Shown here piece after piece: positions 49,692 through 56,700 of a DNA stretch of 64,000 bases. The stretch comes from a virus (lineage: Duplodnaviria; Caudoviricetes). The notes under the pieces are model-generated. The model was given only the letters and a program-made list of their open reading frames with translations, was not told where the DNA came from and did no database searches. Position 1 is the first letter of the stretch. Every line of letters begins with the position of its first letter. Location of the stretch: the IMG/VR virus record IMGVR_UViG_3300032007_000055, positions 26,044 to 90,043 of that record; one strand, written 5' to 3'. The position numbers and the translations under genes are program-made.

Positions 49692-51092
49692 TTAGAACAA
49701 ATCTTTCAACGCGTCATTTGACATGGACTTGGGTTCAAAGCGATCTGCAAGTTCGGCAGCATCGGCGGCTACAGTAGCGAAACCTGTTGAATGTTCCTTT
49801 ACAACTGCAGCTTTCTTGTCGTTTGCAACTTGTGTCCTGTGCAGATTCTCTTTGAGATCTTCAACGATGGCATTCAATGATTTGAAACCAAAGAATCCAA
49901 TCATGGAAGCTCCAATGAGGTCTTCTGTCATTTTGTCAGTGACGATTCCTGACTTTTCAACCTCGAAGAAGATAGGAGTAGTGTCAACACTGGTGACATC
50001 AATTGATGAAATCATGTTGTTTGCATTTTTCTCCTCGACTCCGAGATCGCCGTCATTACGCAGCATTTTCACAGTGCGTGTAACAGACTGTCCACGCGGT
50101 ACCACGTAATTGAATTGATTTTCTTTGGTTATGCTTGTGAATGATGAACATCCACTGATGCGCAATGTGTTGATCTTGTCTTGAAGGTCCATACACTTGA
50201 GAGATGAATTCATCTCTACACCAAAGAATTTCACCCAAGGAGCAGCGGCTCGAGCATTGATAATGTCGAACATCTCCTCAGTGTTGGCGTACTTCACAGA
50301 GCTCGGCAAGTTATTGTCGAGAATGAAGAAGTTACCAATTCCAGCATCGATTGACTTCTGGATGTCCAAGAAGCACTCAATGTTGTTTTGCAAGTTTGTA
50401 ACACCTGAGCTGATCTGACATTTCGGAGTCAAACCAATAACTACAGGGCGAGGAATCTCGTTTGTTACATCGTCGATCGGGAAATCATGTTCACCGATTC
50501 TGAATGATTTAACCGTGTTCATGTAGTTTGCCAAAGAGGCGGTGAACATCGGTCCGAGACCAGATCCAGTACCACCATCAGAACTGAAGACAGTCATAAT
50601 GATTGTCTGCTCTGTCGGATGGAAAAGTACTTCCTCATAGTAAGCGATGAATGTCTGCAAGGCATCCATGGTCTTGTCATCGCTGTACACGTTTGTCGCA
50701 GCGAAGTTTTTGAAATATGCTTTCGCACGATTTCTGTTTTTACCGGCACCGTCAGCATTCTGGCCACCGATTTTAAATTTGTAAGCTTCAGGAATAGGAA
50801 TCTGTGCCAAATCCTGATCTGATGTGTTGACAGCCAAAAGTGTAGGATTGTTCGGAAGAACTCTTGCGAGTGTCATTCCCAAACGTCCACCACCTTGACC
50901 CATTGTTACGATTACAAATCGTAACTTTTCTTTGCTTTTTGCACCATCCAAAACTGTGGGCGATGCTTGTGTTTTAGGAGCAGCCTGAGCCACTTCAACC
51001 TTTTTTTCCTGTGGCTGCTTGGCGTTAGCTACCACGTTTGTTTGAACAGTTTCCTGTTCATTTGAAATGTTGTTGTTTTCCATTGGATCCAT
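49692..51092 (-). CDS. phuZ: tubulin/FtsZ-family GTPase (PhuZ/TubZ-like)
   Basis: MGQGGGRLG, AVNTSDQDL, GAGKNRNRA, signature SDGGTGSGLGP. Confidence 0.9.
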   Translation of the reverse strand: MDPMENNNISNEQETVQTNVVANAKQPQEKKVEVAQAAPKTQASPTVLDGAKSKEKLRFVIVTMGQGGGRLGMTLARVLPNNPTLLAVNTSDQDLAQIPIPEAYKFKIGGQNADGAGKNRNRAKAYFKNFAATNVYSDDKTMDALQTFIAYYEEVLFHPTEQTIIMTVFSSDGGTGSGLGPMFTASLANYMNTVKSFRIGEHDFPIDDVTNEIPRPVVIGLTPKCQISSGVTNLQNNIECFLDIQKSIDAGIGNFFILDNNLPSSVKYANTEEMFDIINARAAAPWVKFFGVEMNSSLKCMDLQDKINTLRISGCSSFTSITKENQFNYVVPRGQSVTRTVKMLRNDGDLGVEEKNANNMISSIDVTSVDTTPIFFEVEKSGIVTDKMTEDLIGASMIGFFGFKSLNAIVEDLKENLHRTQVANDKKAAVVKEHSTGFATVAADAAELADRFEPKSMSNDALKDLF

Positions 51093-51159: not shown

Positions 51160-51513
51160 TTATGCGTTTTCTTCTATATTAGATGTATTTTCATGGTCAG
51201 TTTCAAATATTCTTTCAACATTTACTCGAAGTTTGTACTTTTTGTTTAGCTTAGCGCAAATATCCAATACCAGCATATAAACATACAAAGCGAGAAACAA
51301 CGAAACCGACATTGAAAGAATAAAAATTGCACTTCGTATGATATATTCATACCATTGCATTGAAATTGGGATATTATATAAAATTAAAAACCCAAATATT
51401 GCTGTAAATGCAAATGTGATCAAACCAACACATAGAAAACAATGTGATGACCAGAAAACAATAAAGTTTTTGATTCTTTTACGCGTATTGTCCATATTTT
51501 CTCCTCCACGCAT
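51160..51513 (-). CDS. membrane protein, two TM helices
   Basis: two long hydrophobic segments. Confidence 0.7.
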   Translation of the reverse strand: MRGGENMDNTRKRIKNFIVFWSSHCFLCVGLITFAFTAIFGFLILYNIPISMQWYEYIIRSAIFILSMSVSLFLALYVYMLVLDICAKLNKKYKLRVNVERIFETDHENTSNIEENA

Positions 51514-51556: not shown

Positions 51557-51568
51557 AACATGTCAATA
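51557..51568 (+). promoter_or_regulatory. putative late promoter AACA-N6-TA
   Basis: AACA TGTCAA TA 26 nt upstream of the overlapping gene pair. Confidence 0.65.
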
Positions 51569-51593
51569 TAGTTTAAATAATAAAGGAGTCACA

Positions 51594-52400
51594 ATGTGGA
51601 AATTAAAATTACAAAATTTACGATTATTCGTATTGTTGTCGTTGTTGTTCTCTGCGTCGGTTGTTTTTGCGCAGGAAGATTTATCCGATTTGGAAGAGTT
51701 TCAGGCGCTAGCGAACAGCTTATCAGCGGAATCGTACAAGCAGGAAATGACACAAATAAAATCATTGACCAGCTTGTTGCTTCAGGAGCTTCAGCAGAAT
51801 CCGCAGCAAGATATGGACAGCTCATTGATGGAGTCATTAGAGAACTGCGAGAAGAAAATGAAAAGCTCGGAGTATCAACAGATGAAGCTATCAGAGCAAT
51901 TGAAAGTAATAAACGAATCGCAGACATTGTCCAATCGGCTTCAGCAAGCCTATCTCAAACAACAAACGATGCTCTCGGAGACGCAATTAAACGCGCTGAG
52001 GATTACGAGCGACTTATTGCAACATTACAAGAAGCTGTTCGAAATTCTTCAGAAAATAATAACAAGTCAGAATGATGACATCAAAAATGTTGTCGAATCA
52101 ATGCAGCAAGCGTTAAATAATGCGAATAATGTCAAAACACAACTCGATTCTTGTTTGATTCTTTCTAAAAAACAAGCTGAAGAAATTGAAGCTTTAAAGA
52201 AAAAAACAAAAGGATTGAAACGAGCTAGAATAGCGTCACTATGTATTACTGCTACAGGTTTAATTGTTGGTGGAATTGGTGTATTGCTAAAACAAGATGA
52301 TGCTACAAGAAACATCGGTAATTCTTTAGTAATTTGTGGTGCTACTGCTATAGGTGCGGGTGCTACAACATTCGCTATTTCGATAACAATTCCTTTTTAA
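51594..52400 (+). CDS. exported coiled-coil protein with C-terminal hydrophobic hairpin (spanin-like candidate)
   Basis: signal peptide ...LFVLLSLLFSASVVFA|QE, long Q/L/E coiled coil, two C-terminal hydrophobic segments, ends IPF. Confidence 0.65.
   Translation: MWKLKLQNLRLFVLLSLLFSASVVFAQEDLSDLEEFQALANSLSAESYKQEMTQIKSLTSLLLQELQQNPQQDMDSSLMESLENCEKKMKSSEYQQMKLSEQLKVINESQTLSNRLQQAYLKQQTMLSETQLNALRITSDLLQHYKKLFEILQKIITSQNDDIKNVVESMQQALNNANNVKTQLDSCLILSKKQAEEIEALKKKTKGLKRARIASLCITATGLIVGGIGVLLKQDDATRNIGNSLVICGATAIGAGATTFAISITIPF
51596..52075 (+). CDS. membrane-anchored coiled-coil protein nested in another frame (spanin-like candidate)
   Basis: GTG start 7 nt after AAGGAG; N-terminal TM/lipobox-like IVVVVVLCVGC; Ala/Ser/Glu coiled coil. 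Confidence 0.7.
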   Translation: MEIKITKFTIIRIVVVVVLCVGCFCAGRFIRFGRVSGASEQLISGIVQAGNDTNKIIDQLVASGASAESAARYGQLIDGVIRELREENEKLGVSTDEAIRAIESNKRIADIVQSASASLSQTTNDALGDAIKRAEDYERLIATLQEAVRNSSENNNKSE

Positions 52401-52447
52401 TTAAAAAAAAAATACCCCACATTAATATATAATGTGGGAGAAGTAAA

Positions 52448-52600
52448 TTACCTAACATGTTGCCGGGTTACCGGATCGATGTGAGTAATCTTAATAAACT
52501 CTTCGCGAGTCAAGAATTTCACACCGGAAACATGTTCATCTACCGCTCCAGTCGAGTCTGGAATAGGGTAGTGGTACGGATATCCATGGACAGCGTACAT
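52448..52600 (-). CDS. 50-aa hypothetical protein
   Basis: AGGAGG RBS, promoter motif 52683-52694, terminator 52416-52438; MYAVHGYPYHYPIPDSTGAVDEHVSGVKFLTREEFIKITHIDPVTRQHVR. Confidence 0.7.
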   Translation of the reverse strand: MYAVHGYPYHYPIPDSTGAVDEHVSGVKFLTREEFIKITHIDPVTRQHVR

Positions 52601-52758
52601 GTGGTATTCCTCCTGTAACAGGGAGATTTAGGAGAGGTGGTTGCAGCCACCTCTCCTATTTATTTAACCTGTCTACTATTAATATAATATATAATTCAAA
52701 CAGATGACAAAAATATATAAATTCCGATTAAAATCTATGTAAAGGAGTTAAGAAATAT

Positions 52759-53754
52759 ATGATTAACGAGTTTCTTATTGAAAAAAGCGATGTTGTTGAT
52801 ACAAAAGACACAACGATGCAGAATACCAATGATGTCGTGAAAGAGATTTTGGATGGCGTAACAAATCACTACGATTTGATCAAAGCTATCGAAAAATATA
52901 ACGATGATAACAAACTTCCGTTGAACAAACGCGTTAAATATTCAATTTTGGTTGGTGCGGCATACATTAGTGTTGCTAAAGCCACTGAAGTTGGAACAGA
53001 AACATTCCTTGTAACCAGTTATGATTATACTGGTTCTGCTTCTTTTGAATATGATGAAAAAGGTAAAATGACAAAAGGTTCTGCCAGTTTATCAACGCAT
53101 ATGATTAAAGCCGCCGATGTTCTCGATGTCGTAATCAAAGGTTATGATAAAGATGTTATCGATCCTATACAAGGTAATAAAACTTTGGACGAAATCAGCG
53201 AAAGCGAATTGATCCGCAAGATAACTGATCTTGATCAGAATACATTCCATTATGTAACATCTGGTCAGTATCGTTCATATATTGTTGCTATTTGTAATGG
53301 CTTCAAGAAAGAACATTTGAACGAATACTCTTACACGATGAAACCTGCTGCATATAACTTGTATCTCAAGTTGATTACAAAGTACTTCAATGTGCTTAAA
53401 GAAATCGTAATCGATTCTTGTAATGCTACTGAGAAAAACAGTTTCGCGATTAGTGTTCAAATGCAGCGTGACGGACAACCAATTCAAGTTCAAGTTATGG
53501 CTCAGTATTCTACTGGAAACAAGTTTACTATCGTTGATCTAGGAATGAAAACCGATGAAGTATATGAAACTTTCCTGAAGGCGTACTTCGATAAAAAGAT
53601 GAATGAAAATGATCAGTTTGTATTTACTGATGAATGTAAATTAGAACTTTCTCAAAAGATTTTCACTTCTGAAGAAATTGAAAACTACAAGCGTTGTTTG
53701 GATTGGGAACATATAAAGTTCGATTCAAACGGCAATCCTTATTGGACTGAGTAA
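52759..53754 (+). CDS. hypothetical protein (late-motif promoter)
   Basis: 331 aa, AAGGAG RBS, GACA AAAATA TA at 52706-52717. Confidence 0.85.
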   Translation: MINEFLIEKSDVVDTKDTTMQNTNDVVKEILDGVTNHYDLIKAIEKYNDDNKLPLNKRVKYSILVGAAYISVAKATEVGTETFLVTSYDYTGSASFEYDEKGKMTKGSASLSTHMIKAADVLDVVIKGYDKDVIDPIQGNKTLDEISESELIRKITDLDQNTFHYVTSGQYRSYIVAICNGFKKEHLNEYSYTMKPAAYNLYLKLITKYFNVLKEIVIDSCNATEKNSFAISVQMQRDGQPIQVQVMAQYSTGNKFTIVDLGMKTDEVYETFLKAYFDKKMNENDQFVFTDECKLELSQKIFTSEEIENYKRCLDWEHIKFDSNGNPYWTE

Positions 53755-53793: not shown

Positions 53794-56700
53794 TTATTCG
53801 CCATTTGAGTTTGGATTTGGATCAGGAATAGGATCTGAAGAAGGCATTTCTCGTGTATGGAAATCGTATTCGTCACTATCCGAGTTCATATATTCGTCAG
53901 AAAGTGTCGAATGCTTTTCGTTAAATGCACTAACTCGTTGAGCGAAATCTTCTTGAGATTCATCTTCTCCCAAAACCGGTACTTCTGCAGCTCTAGAATG
54001 TATAACGTATTCTGTTGAAGATATTGCTGCCATAGCGGCGCTTATTTCTTCATCTCTATTAAGGTTTACACCTTCATAGTCGTAGTTCGTAATAAAATCT
54101 ACAAGTAGGTTATTTAGAACTTCGTTATCGTCAACATCGAATTCTGTACGAGCTTCAGCATAGAACATCAAATCATTGTATATATCAGAAGCTTTTTCGA
54201 TAGAAAGCATAAAAGCGTTTAACAGATCAATGATTTCATACAAGTCTGTAGAAGTCTTTTCGATATCTTGTCTATTATCGTATGCTTTCTCAAGTACATC
54301 ATGAAGAATACCTAAGAAAGAATTGTGGAATTCCCTAATAGTGTATTCTTTTTTCAAATTATGAATACTGTAAACAAACTCATCTATATCGTAACTAATT
54401 TTGTCTATATCGTAAACTAATTTATCACGATAAGAAAGAATGTAAATAATTTTACGATTTGGATCTGTAACAAGTGCTCCAAAATCACCATCTGAGATAG
54501 TTGTATGAGAAATATCTACGAACTGACAAGTATTAGTCTCACCAGTTTGTACCACTCCAACACGAACACCTAAGTTCGAATTATTATTTGAAGCAGCAAT
54601 GATTGTTTTTTCGTAGCTTGAAAGAATCCAAGAACCCTTGTTAATATCTGTTCCAACGAATCCATTTTCAATATTCTGGAAATATCGAATACCAAGAGCA
54701 TTCTTTTTATTCGTAGCAAACAAATGAGTTTCATCAAGAGAAACAAGAGTCCATTCGTCTTTACTCATATCTCCACTAGCAAATGCATCATGAATATGAC
54801 CAGCAGAATCATATGTTTTGTATCCAAGCTTATCTGTTTTAGATCTACTGAACACAATACCATTTAATTCAACAAATTCATTATCAGAAATACTTACTGT
54901 AGGTTCATAAGGTACAAGGTCACCATCTTTTTTCGCCATTCGTCGAATATTATTTGATTGATCATTAAGCATTATGTAGTTATCAAGAATAACGCATTTT
55001 GTTACAGCTATAGAATTTGGTTGTAAACTATTTGATATCGAATTGTGACTTGGATTTGGAGGAGAATTATATCCTATCGAATTGGAATTATTTTCTGTTT
55101 GGAACTGTACCCATTTGACTCCAGTATTTGTCGCAAAAACAAACGTACCATCTCTTTCTTCAATGGTGATCGGTACGATAAGTCCATTGATAATAGAATC
55201 AGGATCATCAAAATTCTCCAACTCGTTAAGATTAAATAATCCCGATGCATGTCGTGTATGCAAACAAATCGGATCTCCAGATGGAGTTCCTCCCATTACA
55301 TATAAATCGTAAGTATGGGCTTCAGATTCTTGTTGTTGTCCATTTTCTCCAGAACCAGTGGATGATCCTGTTCCACTGTTGCTTTGAGTTTTGTATATAT
55401 TGTCTTCAACAAAATAAACCAAGTTTGTTATTGAACGAATAGTATTGTATCTACAAGGTTGGAACTTTTTAGTATAATTAACGGACCATATCGATCCTGG
55501 TGCATCAGAAGCGTAAATCAAATAGCCGCTACTTTCAATCTTTTCAAATTTCCATTCGGAACCTCGATCTGCCCCGTTATTGAATTTTGACATGTCCCAA
55601 TACTTAAAACCGTTGTCATTCGTTCCACAAAGTAGTACTATTCCAAGAGAAGAAATATATTTAAATTCATAATTCTGAGCATCAGAAACATTAGATTTGT
55701 AAATTTTGGAGTTACTGAGGAACCAAATTTCATTTTCGTCATTTATAAAGAATACGTATTTGCCATATTCTTGAATAGAAACCCAATTGCCAGATGTGAC
55801 ATTCATTTGCTCCAATTCGTTTGTAGATTCGTTCAGATGCCAGATACCATTGTTTTTAGTATTATCCGAACCTCCGAAGAATGTTCCGTTTTCTTTAGAA
55901 GCAATACAAGACATCCAGTCCCCAGTTTCAACATTTGTATACTTAATGCGTTTTGTATTCAAATCATATCCGAAGATACCCTTTCTATCAAATCCGACAA
56001 ACTTCGTAGTCATCAAGTCTTTGATACTATACAAAACGTTTACAAACGTATTTGTTTTATCGTTTATTTTCTTAATAACTTTTCTAGCATTATCATACAA
56101 TGTTTTCAAATAAGAAGATAAGAATTCATAATCGTATAAGAATACAGATTTAGCAAAACCTTCATTACGAATGTTGTTTTCAAACAAACGAATAGCCATT
56201 TTGAACAAATGGATAATCTTGTTTTTCTGTTCGTTGGTACCTAAATCGAATACAACTTCTTCATAATTCAAAACATCAATACCGACAAGAATCTTGCAGT
56301 TATCATTAAGAGAAATGTTTGTAGAATAATTAAAACATTGTATGAGAGAACCAGGTTCACGTATATTTTTGTAACCAAATACAAACGTTACTAGAGTTTC
56401 AAACAAGTTTTGATATCCAGTGATAGCATACTTTTCCATTGAGTTATAAAAACGTGTTAACCAAGAAATAATCATATCACGTTTTTCTATCATCGGTATA
56501 TTTGAAACATATCGCATGTATGAGACAAGTTTATTGTTTGCACTCATACTGTTTTTGAGTTTTTCACTAATCGTCACATTTGTGTTATGGTTTACGCCAT
56601 GCACTGAGTCATTATCGGAACTTGTGTCGAATAGATCATATATCTTATCTTGATCACCAAAGATAGTTTCGAGTTCTTCTTTAGTTACAGGATCATCGAC

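Follow-up and report, generated by a model that had tools for sequence, protein, structure and literature searches.

The 64,000 nt window analysed here (the whole stretch of DNA, taken from a 90-kb IMG/VR viral contig with an estimated completeness of 32%) contains a pair of genes, F1 and F3, that are read from the same strand in different frames and begin at start codons sharing a single base, the shorter gene being nested within the longer. F1 is the frame starting from the ATG at 51594, whilst F3 starts from the GTG at 51596 and is +2 relative to F1. Judging from the sequences, it can be put forward with high confidence that this is real dual coding of two envelope proteins, and a genuine same-strand dual-coding locus is very likely the best explanation of the data as a whole. 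The features of the locus are as follows.

51557-51568, + strand: AACA-N6-TA motif, putative AR9-type late promoter, read from the sequence
51583-51588, + strand: Shine-Dalgarno sequence AAGGAG, common to both starts, read from the sequence
51594-52400, + strand: F1 gene, 268 amino acids (aa); signal peptide, helical rod and C-terminal hydrophobic domain ending in Phe
51596-52075, + strand: F3 gene, 159 aa; N-terminal transmembrane anchor and helical domain, nested in F1
51594-51671, + strand: F1 signal peptide, residues 1-26, with the cleavage-type site VFA/QED, from alignments
51617-51673, + strand: F3 membrane anchor, on bases that also encode the F1 signal peptide
52224-52397, + strand: F1 C-terminal hydrophobic domain, residues 211-268, comprising a basic cluster, two Gly/Ala/Thr-rich hydrophobic segments, an alternating motif and the terminal Phe
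52415-52439, - strand: terminator-like hairpin just past the F1 stop, with its T-run on the minus strand

The Shine-Dalgarno sequence is followed by the spacer TCACA and then by ATGTG, such that the ATG (51594-51596) has a spacing of 5 nt and the GTG (51596-51598) one of 7 nt. This arrangement, with its products of 268 aa and 159 aa, had been described in an initial annotation of the DNA, and both the sequence and the listing of open reading frames (ORFs) bear it out. The F3 frame opens at 51584, following a stop; there is no other standard start upstream, nor an alternative one that would include the hydrophobic segment of the protein. The hairpin beyond the F1 stop, judged by its T-run, appears to serve a convergent minus-strand transcript.

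The overlap in the window, which is stop-free in both frames for 480 nt, is far beyond chance. With the F1 protein held fixed and its synonymous codons shuffled according to the codon usage of this phage, the +2 frame acquired 12.9 stops on average over its 159 codons (never fewer than 4) and was open in none of the 20000 shuffles; with the F3 protein fixed instead, 8.4 stops were expected in the F1 frame. None is observed in either. Over the 106 codons of the F1 tail, which lies outside the overlap, the two off-frames contain 9 and 11 stops, as is normal. The GC content is 0.44 across the overlap and 0.33 downstream, the rise being confined to the overlapped part. An antisense ORF of 112 aa (51589-51927 on the minus strand) lies opposite the dual-coding stretch, making three long ORFs on the same DNA; it probably results from the raised GC content and the scarcity of stops here.

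Database searches identified 14 full-length homologues of F1, at 37-72% identity, and 87 of F3. DNA from viral and metagenome contigs provided 32 distinct complete homologous loci, representing 14 clusters at 70% F1 identity and 11 at 60%, with identity to the window falling as low as 29%. Both frames are open in all 32, with F1 ranging from 231 to 268 aa and F3 from 139 to 168 aa, and the F3 ends fall within around 30 alignment columns across the loci. By the same calculation, each locus would be expected to have 13.7 stops in the F3 frame (range 10.7-18.3) and 7.2 in the F1 frame (range 5.3-9.8), yet none is observed. The initial annotation had named stops within the N-terminal 160 codons of either frame in homologues as the finding that would count against it; every one of the 32 overlapped loci is free of them.

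The start site is conserved along with the frames. The context ATGTG occurs in 28/32 loci, three have an F3 ATG situated 4 nt upstream of the F1 ATG (ATGGATG), and the last, L012, has ATGGATA at this site, with F1 beginning at an ATG further upstream. One additional locus outside the 32 has GTGTG. An AGGAG-like Shine-Dalgarno sequence is present within the last 20 nt or so before the start in most of the 32, and an NACA-N6-TA motif lies upstream of the pair in eight, namely those having an intergenic region; the motif suggests that the pair may be expressed late. In the clade L053-L056, the middle of both proteins has been replaced by unrelated sequence, with the overlap layout retained. Within this clade, the F1 of L056 (L056:1908-2648) leaves the family sequence around 27 residues before its end for an unrelated Arg/Gln-rich tail, which may represent a frameshift or an assembly error.

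Selection on the two frames was assessed by an OLGenie-style count on pairs of loci with 80-98.5% DNA identity. Within the overlap, F1 had a dNN/dSN of 0.26 (95% interval 0.19-0.34) and F3 a dNN/dNS of 0.41 (95% interval 0.30-0.54), whereas the control, the non-coding frames of the F1 tail, gave ratios of 0.66-0.69 with upper bounds of 1.04-1.08. This supports purifying selection on both frames, with a modest margin over the control.

A sister lineage, represented by L020, L058 and L059 (which stand for 41 protein clusters on contigs of up to 290 kb), has the two genes separated. The order here is F3 (150 aa), an inserted gene of 311 aa, then a stand-alone F1 (243 aa) that has its own canonical signal peptide, though freed from the overlap, and an AT-rich N-terminal half. 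Three remnants show that this lineage arose by the insertion of a cassette into an overlapped ancestor: within the F3 gene, the F1 frame runs into a stop at codon 95; more than 20 stops interrupt the +2 frame of the N-terminal half of the stand-alone F1; and, around codon 125 of that +2 frame, remains of the former F3 C-terminus can still be recognised. The ratio of nonsynonymous to synonymous polymorphism (pN/pS) is 0.24-0.39 in the freed N-terminal half of F1 and 0-0.22 in the freed C-terminal end of F3, in each case on few substitutions, which is indicative of purifying selection acting on the freed parts of both proteins. The retention of two full-length proteins after separation is the strongest argument that both are needed. 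As the sister lineage keeps both without the overlap, the overlap itself is not essential. The only lineage with a stop in the F1 frame has a separate, full-length F1 gene nearby, and so supports the initial annotation rather than contradicting it.

The inserted 311-aa gene (L020:5437-6372, L058:3064-3999 and L059:3064-3999) had no match in Pfam or NCBIfam. Its C-terminal region resembles a gene of 157-179 aa found around 1.7 kb upstream, the two falling in the same blastp cluster, and it carries a motif of the PDF...E-x-K type, which suggests a PD-(D/E)XK nuclease. It is possibly a free-standing homing endonuclease, the insertion of which split the overlapped pair.

The two frames differ in how closely they follow the codon usage of the genome. 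F3 in the overlap is genome-like, with a correlation of codon frequencies of r 0.62, a correlation of relative synonymous codon usage (RSCU) of r 0.58 and a GC content at third codon positions (GC3) of 0.25. The overlapped part of F1 is atypical (codon frequency r 0.36, RSCU r -0.14, GC3 0.55), whilst its non-overlapped tail is again typical (codon frequency r 0.71, RSCU r 0.77, GC3 0.17); the other genes of the window have a GC3 of 0.29. On the codon-usage criterion for telling older from overprinted viral frames (PMC3494269), F3 is the ancestral frame, over which the first 160 codons of F1 were overprinted. In this way, what had been a shorter C-terminal membrane protein came to reach back as far as the ribosome-binding site of F3. 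All three of the signs of overprinting that were sought are present: frames that are open and conserved, purifying selection on each, and asymmetry in codon usage.

This asymmetry also accounts for the way in which the pair is annotated in public data, where F3 is accompanied by a fragment of its partner. Public collections contain 87 F3 clusters, 16 full-length F1 clusters and many 'F1 tails' of 100-130 aa; gene callers annotate either F3 with an F1 tail or F1 alone, never both, such that F3 is called around five times as often as full-length F1. There is consequently a systematic annotation blind spot for this family. A short F1 initiated internally was considered and rejected: homologues do not conserve the Met from which the gene callers start it, and in the separated lineage the N-terminal half of F1 has been retained in full. 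The same gene calls, along with the atypical codon usage of F1 in the overlap, are what could be expected if only a single frame were translated and the other were a by-product of composition or of recent common descent. We consider this highly improbable, given the absence of stops from 32/32 loci in 14 clusters at 70% identity, where 7-14 would be expected, the ratios below control in both frames, and the maintenance of both full-length proteins under purifying selection once separated. No more credible is a programmed frameshift near the F3 stop, generating a fusion of the F3 anchor and rod with the F1 tail: the F3 stop does sit inside the open F1 frame, so that a shift would be productive, but this would require F1 to be open only near the shift site, whereas in 32/32 loci it is open from the shared start onwards, its ATG and signal peptide being conserved. 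Furthermore, in the separated lineage each of the two proteins has a gene of its own, and an unrelated gene stands between these.

Under the dual-coding reading, one mRNA with one Shine-Dalgarno sequence would present two start codons sharing one base (ATGTG). Initiation at the ATG would produce F1, consisting of a Sec signal peptide, a helical rod of around 180 aa and a C-terminal hydrophobic anchor; initiation at the GTG, two bases later, would produce F3, an N-terminal transmembrane anchor with a helical domain of around 130 aa. Every base would thus serve both proteins across 480 nt. Ribosomes bound at the same site may use both codons, with codon identity and spacing setting the ratio of the products; the pair of starts would be ATG and GTG in most loci, and ATG and ATG in some. 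The two proteins would then act together in the host envelope late in infection, where breaching or controlling the envelope at lysis is their most likely role. A lysis-related role of any kind is a serious, if tentative, proposition, whilst a true spanin-type bridge between the inner and outer membranes seems improbable.

The layouts of the proteins are consistent with export to, or anchoring in, the envelope. F1 begins with a signal peptide of the signal peptidase I (SPase I) type, having a V-F-A/Q type cleavage site followed by an acidic start to the mature chain. Its AlphaFold2 model is all helical, with a predicted local distance difference test (pLDDT) score of 74, and includes one helix of around 135 residues; after the rod come a basic cluster and then a Gly/Ala/Thr-rich C-terminal domain of around 55 residues. 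F3 has a short Lys-rich N-terminus, a hydrophobic segment of 19 residues, a conserved motif and three predicted helices. The hydrophobic segment (residues 8-26) has a Kyte-Doolittle score of 2.1-2.8 in almost all 32 sequences, the lowest being 1.74, with a net charge of +0.9 on its N-terminal side and +2.1 on its C-terminal side. The motif that follows, GRFIRFGR-SG-SEQL, is the most conserved in the family.

No canonical lipobox ([LVI][ASTVI][GAS]C) was found in any of the 32 F1 N-termini, nor is there a Cys at position +1 of the F1 cleavage site. The pattern occurs in 5/32 F3 N-termini, as IIAC or LAGC, and in neither the F1 nor the F3 alignment is any cysteine invariant or nearly so. The initial annotation was therefore right to describe F1 as lacking a lipobox and ending in Phe, a residue found at the last position in 32/33 sequences, and its view of both proteins as envelope-targeted and helical agrees with the alignments of signal peptide and anchor and with the helical models. 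The lipobox-like VLCVG-C that it pointed out in F3, however, is not conserved, and the sequence in the window (VLCVGC) does not itself match the pattern.

Searches of Pfam, PHROGs and NCBIfam with F1 and F3 returned only sub-threshold coiled-coil noise; no match to the holin, XhlA or BhlA families was present in any of the three, and Pfam contained no YadA_anchor or outer-membrane family matching F1 at E values up to 0.1. A Foldseek comparison of the F1 model with PDB and BFVD found nothing at E <=0.001, and a feature search of the ESM Atlas with F3 found unnamed viral clusters only. Profile matches in PDB to FlgK and to designed helical bundles had weak E-values, and were set aside as reflecting composition, not homology. 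An exhaustive F1 profile search delineated a small family of 68 representative clusters with no link to any known family.

The F1 C-terminus can be read in two ways, and the choice between them decides the function of the pair. AlphaFold2 models it as two transmembrane helices forming a hairpin (pLDDT 70-78), and two 19-residue hydrophobic stretches with Kyte-Doolittle scores of 1.4-2.1 are present. The last nine residues, however, show strict period-2 conservation over 33 sequences: in addition to the terminal Phe, there is Ile or Leu at position -3 and Phe, Ile or Leu at positions -5 and -7 in 33/33, and a hydrophobic residue at -9 in 32/33, with Thr, Ser, Pro, Ala or Gly interleaved between them. 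The hydrophobic moment of the last ten residues is 1.65 at 180 degrees and 0.42 at 100 degrees, with period 2 evident in 31/31 scored. In the family-averaged profile, all three C-terminal segments have a moment at 170-180 degrees, where the signal peptide has none, whilst that of the F1 rod is greatest at 100-110 degrees. Beta periodicity extends to the inner segments in L006-type sequences (p 0.006-0.03), but not in the F1 of the window (p ~0.63). A terminal Phe preceded by alternating hydrophobic residues is a signature of outer-membrane barrel proteins, and this resemblance keeps alive a reading in which F1 would be placed in the outer membrane.

A number of points weigh against the account given above. 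The selection test is modest, since its own control frames also fall below 1. Where residues are identical, codon identity is 0.60 in the overlap and 0.53 in the tail, a signal of synonymous-site conservation too weak to use, probably because of mosaic recombination. The function of the pair is read from its architecture, there being no significant family, PDB-sequence or Foldseek match, and for F3 the structure model, although helical, is poor (pLDDT 47). There is no conserved lysis-gene neighbour, the pair lacking any fixed lysis neighbourhood. Finally, a helical hairpin in the inner membrane would give the F1 C-terminus an inconsistent topology. Judging by the signal peptide, the rod should be exported, but the hydrophobic domain is preceded by a basic cluster of around +5 and contains a loop that is net neutral to acidic; hence a hairpin conflicts with the positive-inside rule. 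An outer-membrane location of F1 would remove this conflict.

Two accounts of what the pair might do in the envelope differ in their reading of this C-terminus. In the first, it would be a two-component spanin of a diderm host that does without a lipoprotein: F3 would be an inner-membrane, i-spanin-like rod, and F1 would be exported by Sec, its C-terminal strands forming an oligomeric outer-membrane beta anchor, such that the rods would connect within the periplasm and, once the wall has been degraded, destroy the outer membrane. This is what the N-terminal transmembrane segment and around 130 helical residues of F3, the canonical SPase I-type signal peptide of F1 and its barrel-like, beta-periodic end would suggest, as would the relief of the charge conflict and the lysin candidates of two complete relatives, which are SLT-domain proteins with N-terminal signal anchors. 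Nevertheless, we regard it as doubtful. Neither protein has a conserved lipobox; AlphaFold2 favours helices at the F1 C-terminus; the F1 of the window is beta-periodic in its last strand only; Pfam offers no outer-membrane family; the pair does not adjoin a lysin; and the host-like gene of a related phage that is described below has its closest bacterial relatives mostly in monoderms. There is also no near-invariant cysteine, whereas spanin function has been linked to intermolecular disulfides (PMC6139136). Of the spanin reading in the initial annotation, the i-spanin-like layout of F3 thus stands, whilst a conserved lipobox, linkage to an endolysin and a known family or fold are lacking.

The alternative, which is possible and somewhat better placed, is a complex in the cytoplasmic membrane of a monoderm, or any other, host. 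The F1 hairpin would here consist of glycine-rich transmembrane helices of the holin or pore-former type and F3 would be an anchored regulator or partner, with both ectodomains outside; the role might be in lysis timing, as a holin with its antiholin, or in some other late envelope function such as superinfection exclusion. The phages of Gram-positive bacteria have membrane-anchored coiled-coil lysis proteins of the XhlA and BhlA types, the two topologies of which match those of F1 and F3. Consistent with such a complex are the helices modelled throughout the F1 C-terminus and its two 19-residue hydrophobic stretches, as well as a genome rich in Shine-Dalgarno sequences and a Clostridia-like GGDEF-EAL gene, which fit a Bacillota host. 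The top Foldseek rows are alpha pore-forming toxin subunits, which likewise combine a helical rod with a hydrophobic hairpin, but at E >=0.17 these are not significant. Against it, no holin, XhlA or BhlA family is matched, there is no adjacent lysin, the basic cluster would sit on the outer face, and the strict period-2 pattern and terminal Phe have no obvious reason to exist in a transmembrane helix. Should F1 instead be beta-anchored through the barrel-assembly machinery, in a fixed ratio with inner-membrane F3, the pair would be a new type of outer-membrane-breaching machine without a lipoprotein, which we consider rather unlikely. Such a machine would suit diderm hosts with non-proteobacterial lipoprotein sorting, for instance Negativicutes or spirochaetes, and would reveal a way for phages to break through outer membranes with no lipoprotein subunit involved.

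Long same-strand overlaps are generally regarded as almost absent from prokaryotic genomes; the textbook phage exception is Rz/Rz1, which has an internal second start. The spanin gene pairs (lambda Rz/Rz1 and P2 LysB/LysC; PMC6139136) resemble F1 and F3 in that two envelope-targeted proteins are encoded out of frame by the same strand of the same DNA, and F3 shares with i-spanins the layout of an N-terminal transmembrane segment and a helical, periplasmic-type domain. Spanin families also occur in both overlapped and separated architectures (Kongari et al. 2018, PMC6139136), as does the F1/F3 family in its related lineages. However, the o-spanin, the smaller partner, is a lipobox-bearing lipoprotein initiated at an internal start in the +1 frame, whereas the starts of F1 and F3 coincide; the nested partner is here the anchor-plus-rod protein F3, in the +2 frame, and the larger F1 is of the SPase I type and without a lipobox. 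The overlap of 480 nt lies outside a lysis cassette. Hence, of the properties that define two-component spanins, the i-spanin layout is found in F3, but neither the o-spanin lipobox nor the location in a lysis cassette is. F1 shares a C-terminal hydrophobic domain with unimolecular spanins of the T1 gp11 type, but its SPase I signal without a lipobox sets it apart from them. Nor does it fit the usual description of a holin, a small membrane protein with one to four transmembrane helices and a gene next to that of the endolysin, being a 268-aa protein with a signal peptide, lacking a family match and not lying beside a lysin; it may nonetheless act in a holin-like manner.

Trimeric autotransporter anchors and the C-terminal signals of barrel proteins are similar to F1 in the combination of a signal peptide, a coiled-coil-like rod, and a short, hydrophobic, Gly/Ala/Thr-rich end with an alternating pattern and a terminal Phe; F1 differs in having no YadA_anchor match and a helical AlphaFold2 model, and in the absence of inner beta periodicity from the subfamily in the window. 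In lambda, the S105/S107 holin and antiholin are initiated at two starts a few bases apart behind one ribosome-binding site, which sets the ratio of two membrane proteins. The close starts of F1 and F3 are arranged in the same manner, but those of lambda are in the same frame and give products that differ by two residues, whereas those of F1 and F3 are in different frames and give unrelated sequences.

The pair also shares with overprinted viral genes (Sabath et al. 2012, PMC3494269; reviewed in PMC8227390) a second frame laid over an older gene, atypical codon usage in that frame and purifying selection on both, with the newer frame at least as constrained as the older. The set of 12 validated viral genes in PMC3494269 includes those of small RNA viruses such as influenza A, a picornavirus and a betacoronavirus. 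In the present case, the overlap is conserved across many lineages of jumbo double-stranded DNA phages with genomes of 260-400 kb, in which saving space is not an obvious pressure, and the overprinted part is the N-terminal two thirds of the longer protein, which uses the ribosome-binding site of the older gene. This conservation in large genomes suggests that the overlap is kept for reasons of expression, whether ratio, timing or co-localisation, or by evolutionary lock-in. The sister lineage in which the overlap has been undone provides a natural control for what it costs or buys. The literature searched yielded no paper on Negativicutes spanins or on out-of-frame starts that coincide in phages, and F1/F3 dual coding is apparently undescribed in it.

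The proteins of the window include a PhuZ/TubZ-like tubulin (49692-51092, minus strand), multisubunit RNA polymerase beta-subunit genes, a DNA polymerase and a virion protein. As the same dual-frame locus occurs in related contigs of 260-400 kb, recovered from rumen and gut metagenomes, the phage belongs to a lineage of uncultured jumbo phages of the gut or rumen. None of 50,697 GenBank phage records matched the locus in a DNA search, nor were any matches to F1 or F3 obtained with tblastn at E <=0.05 in this set. A search of 185,579 bacterial species genomes yielded no relative of F3 and hence no prophage copy.

Hints as to the host are mixed. A Shine-Dalgarno sequence precedes around 34/49 genes in the window, which speaks against Bacteroidota and is consistent with Bacillota or spirochaetes. 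In a related jumbo phage there is a GGDEF-EAL gene, for cyclic-di-GMP turnover (L059:5966-7603, minus strand), the nearest bacterial relatives of which, at 33-43% identity, are from rumen Eubacteriaceae, Lachnospiraceae, Ruminococcus and Oscillospiraceae along with several Treponema, with no Negativicutes among them. The use of Shine-Dalgarno sequences and this host-like gene point to a Bacillota or Treponema host. Taken with the barrel-like end of F1, these hints neither bear out nor contradict the diderm host inferred in the initial annotation.

No Pfam lysin or holin domain was identified in the neighbours of the pair, and Amidase_3, Glyco_hydro_25, Phage_lysozyme and PG_binding_1 are absent from its own record and from three complete relatives. 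In the complete relative G001, an Amidase_2 gene lies around 86 kb from the pair, among sugar-metabolism genes, and an SLT-domain gene 8 kb from it; in G003 the SLT-domain gene is around 170 kb away. The SLT-domain proteins of two complete related phages (L102:1324-2112, minus strand, 262 aa; L101:1177-1944, plus strand, 255 aa) have an N-terminal hydrophobic segment resembling a signal anchor, which makes them candidates for exported or signal-anchor-release endolysins.

The neighbours that do recur are the tubulin homologue, a 331-aa protein (52759-53754, plus strand) and a protein of around 1600 aa (1617 aa in the window, 53794-58647, minus strand), which come back beside it in several related contigs (L012, L022, L023, L027 and L005). 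In another clade, a 211-aa multi-pass membrane protein is encoded directly downstream of the pair (L006:3303-3938, L020:7116-7751, L058:4742-5377, and in L045 and L047), adjoining it whether the two genes overlap or are separate; this protein may be a third component. None of the 331-aa, 1617-aa and 211-aa proteins has a Pfam match. On the other side of the pair, and divergent from it, is a gene for a 117-aa protein with around three hydrophobic segments (51160-51513, minus strand), which has no family match and is not kept next to the pair at other loci. Downstream, a strong terminator-like hairpin with a 13-bp stem and a T-run (52629-52658, plus strand) lies between a short, convergent minus-strand ORF (52448-52600) and the gene for the 331-aa protein.

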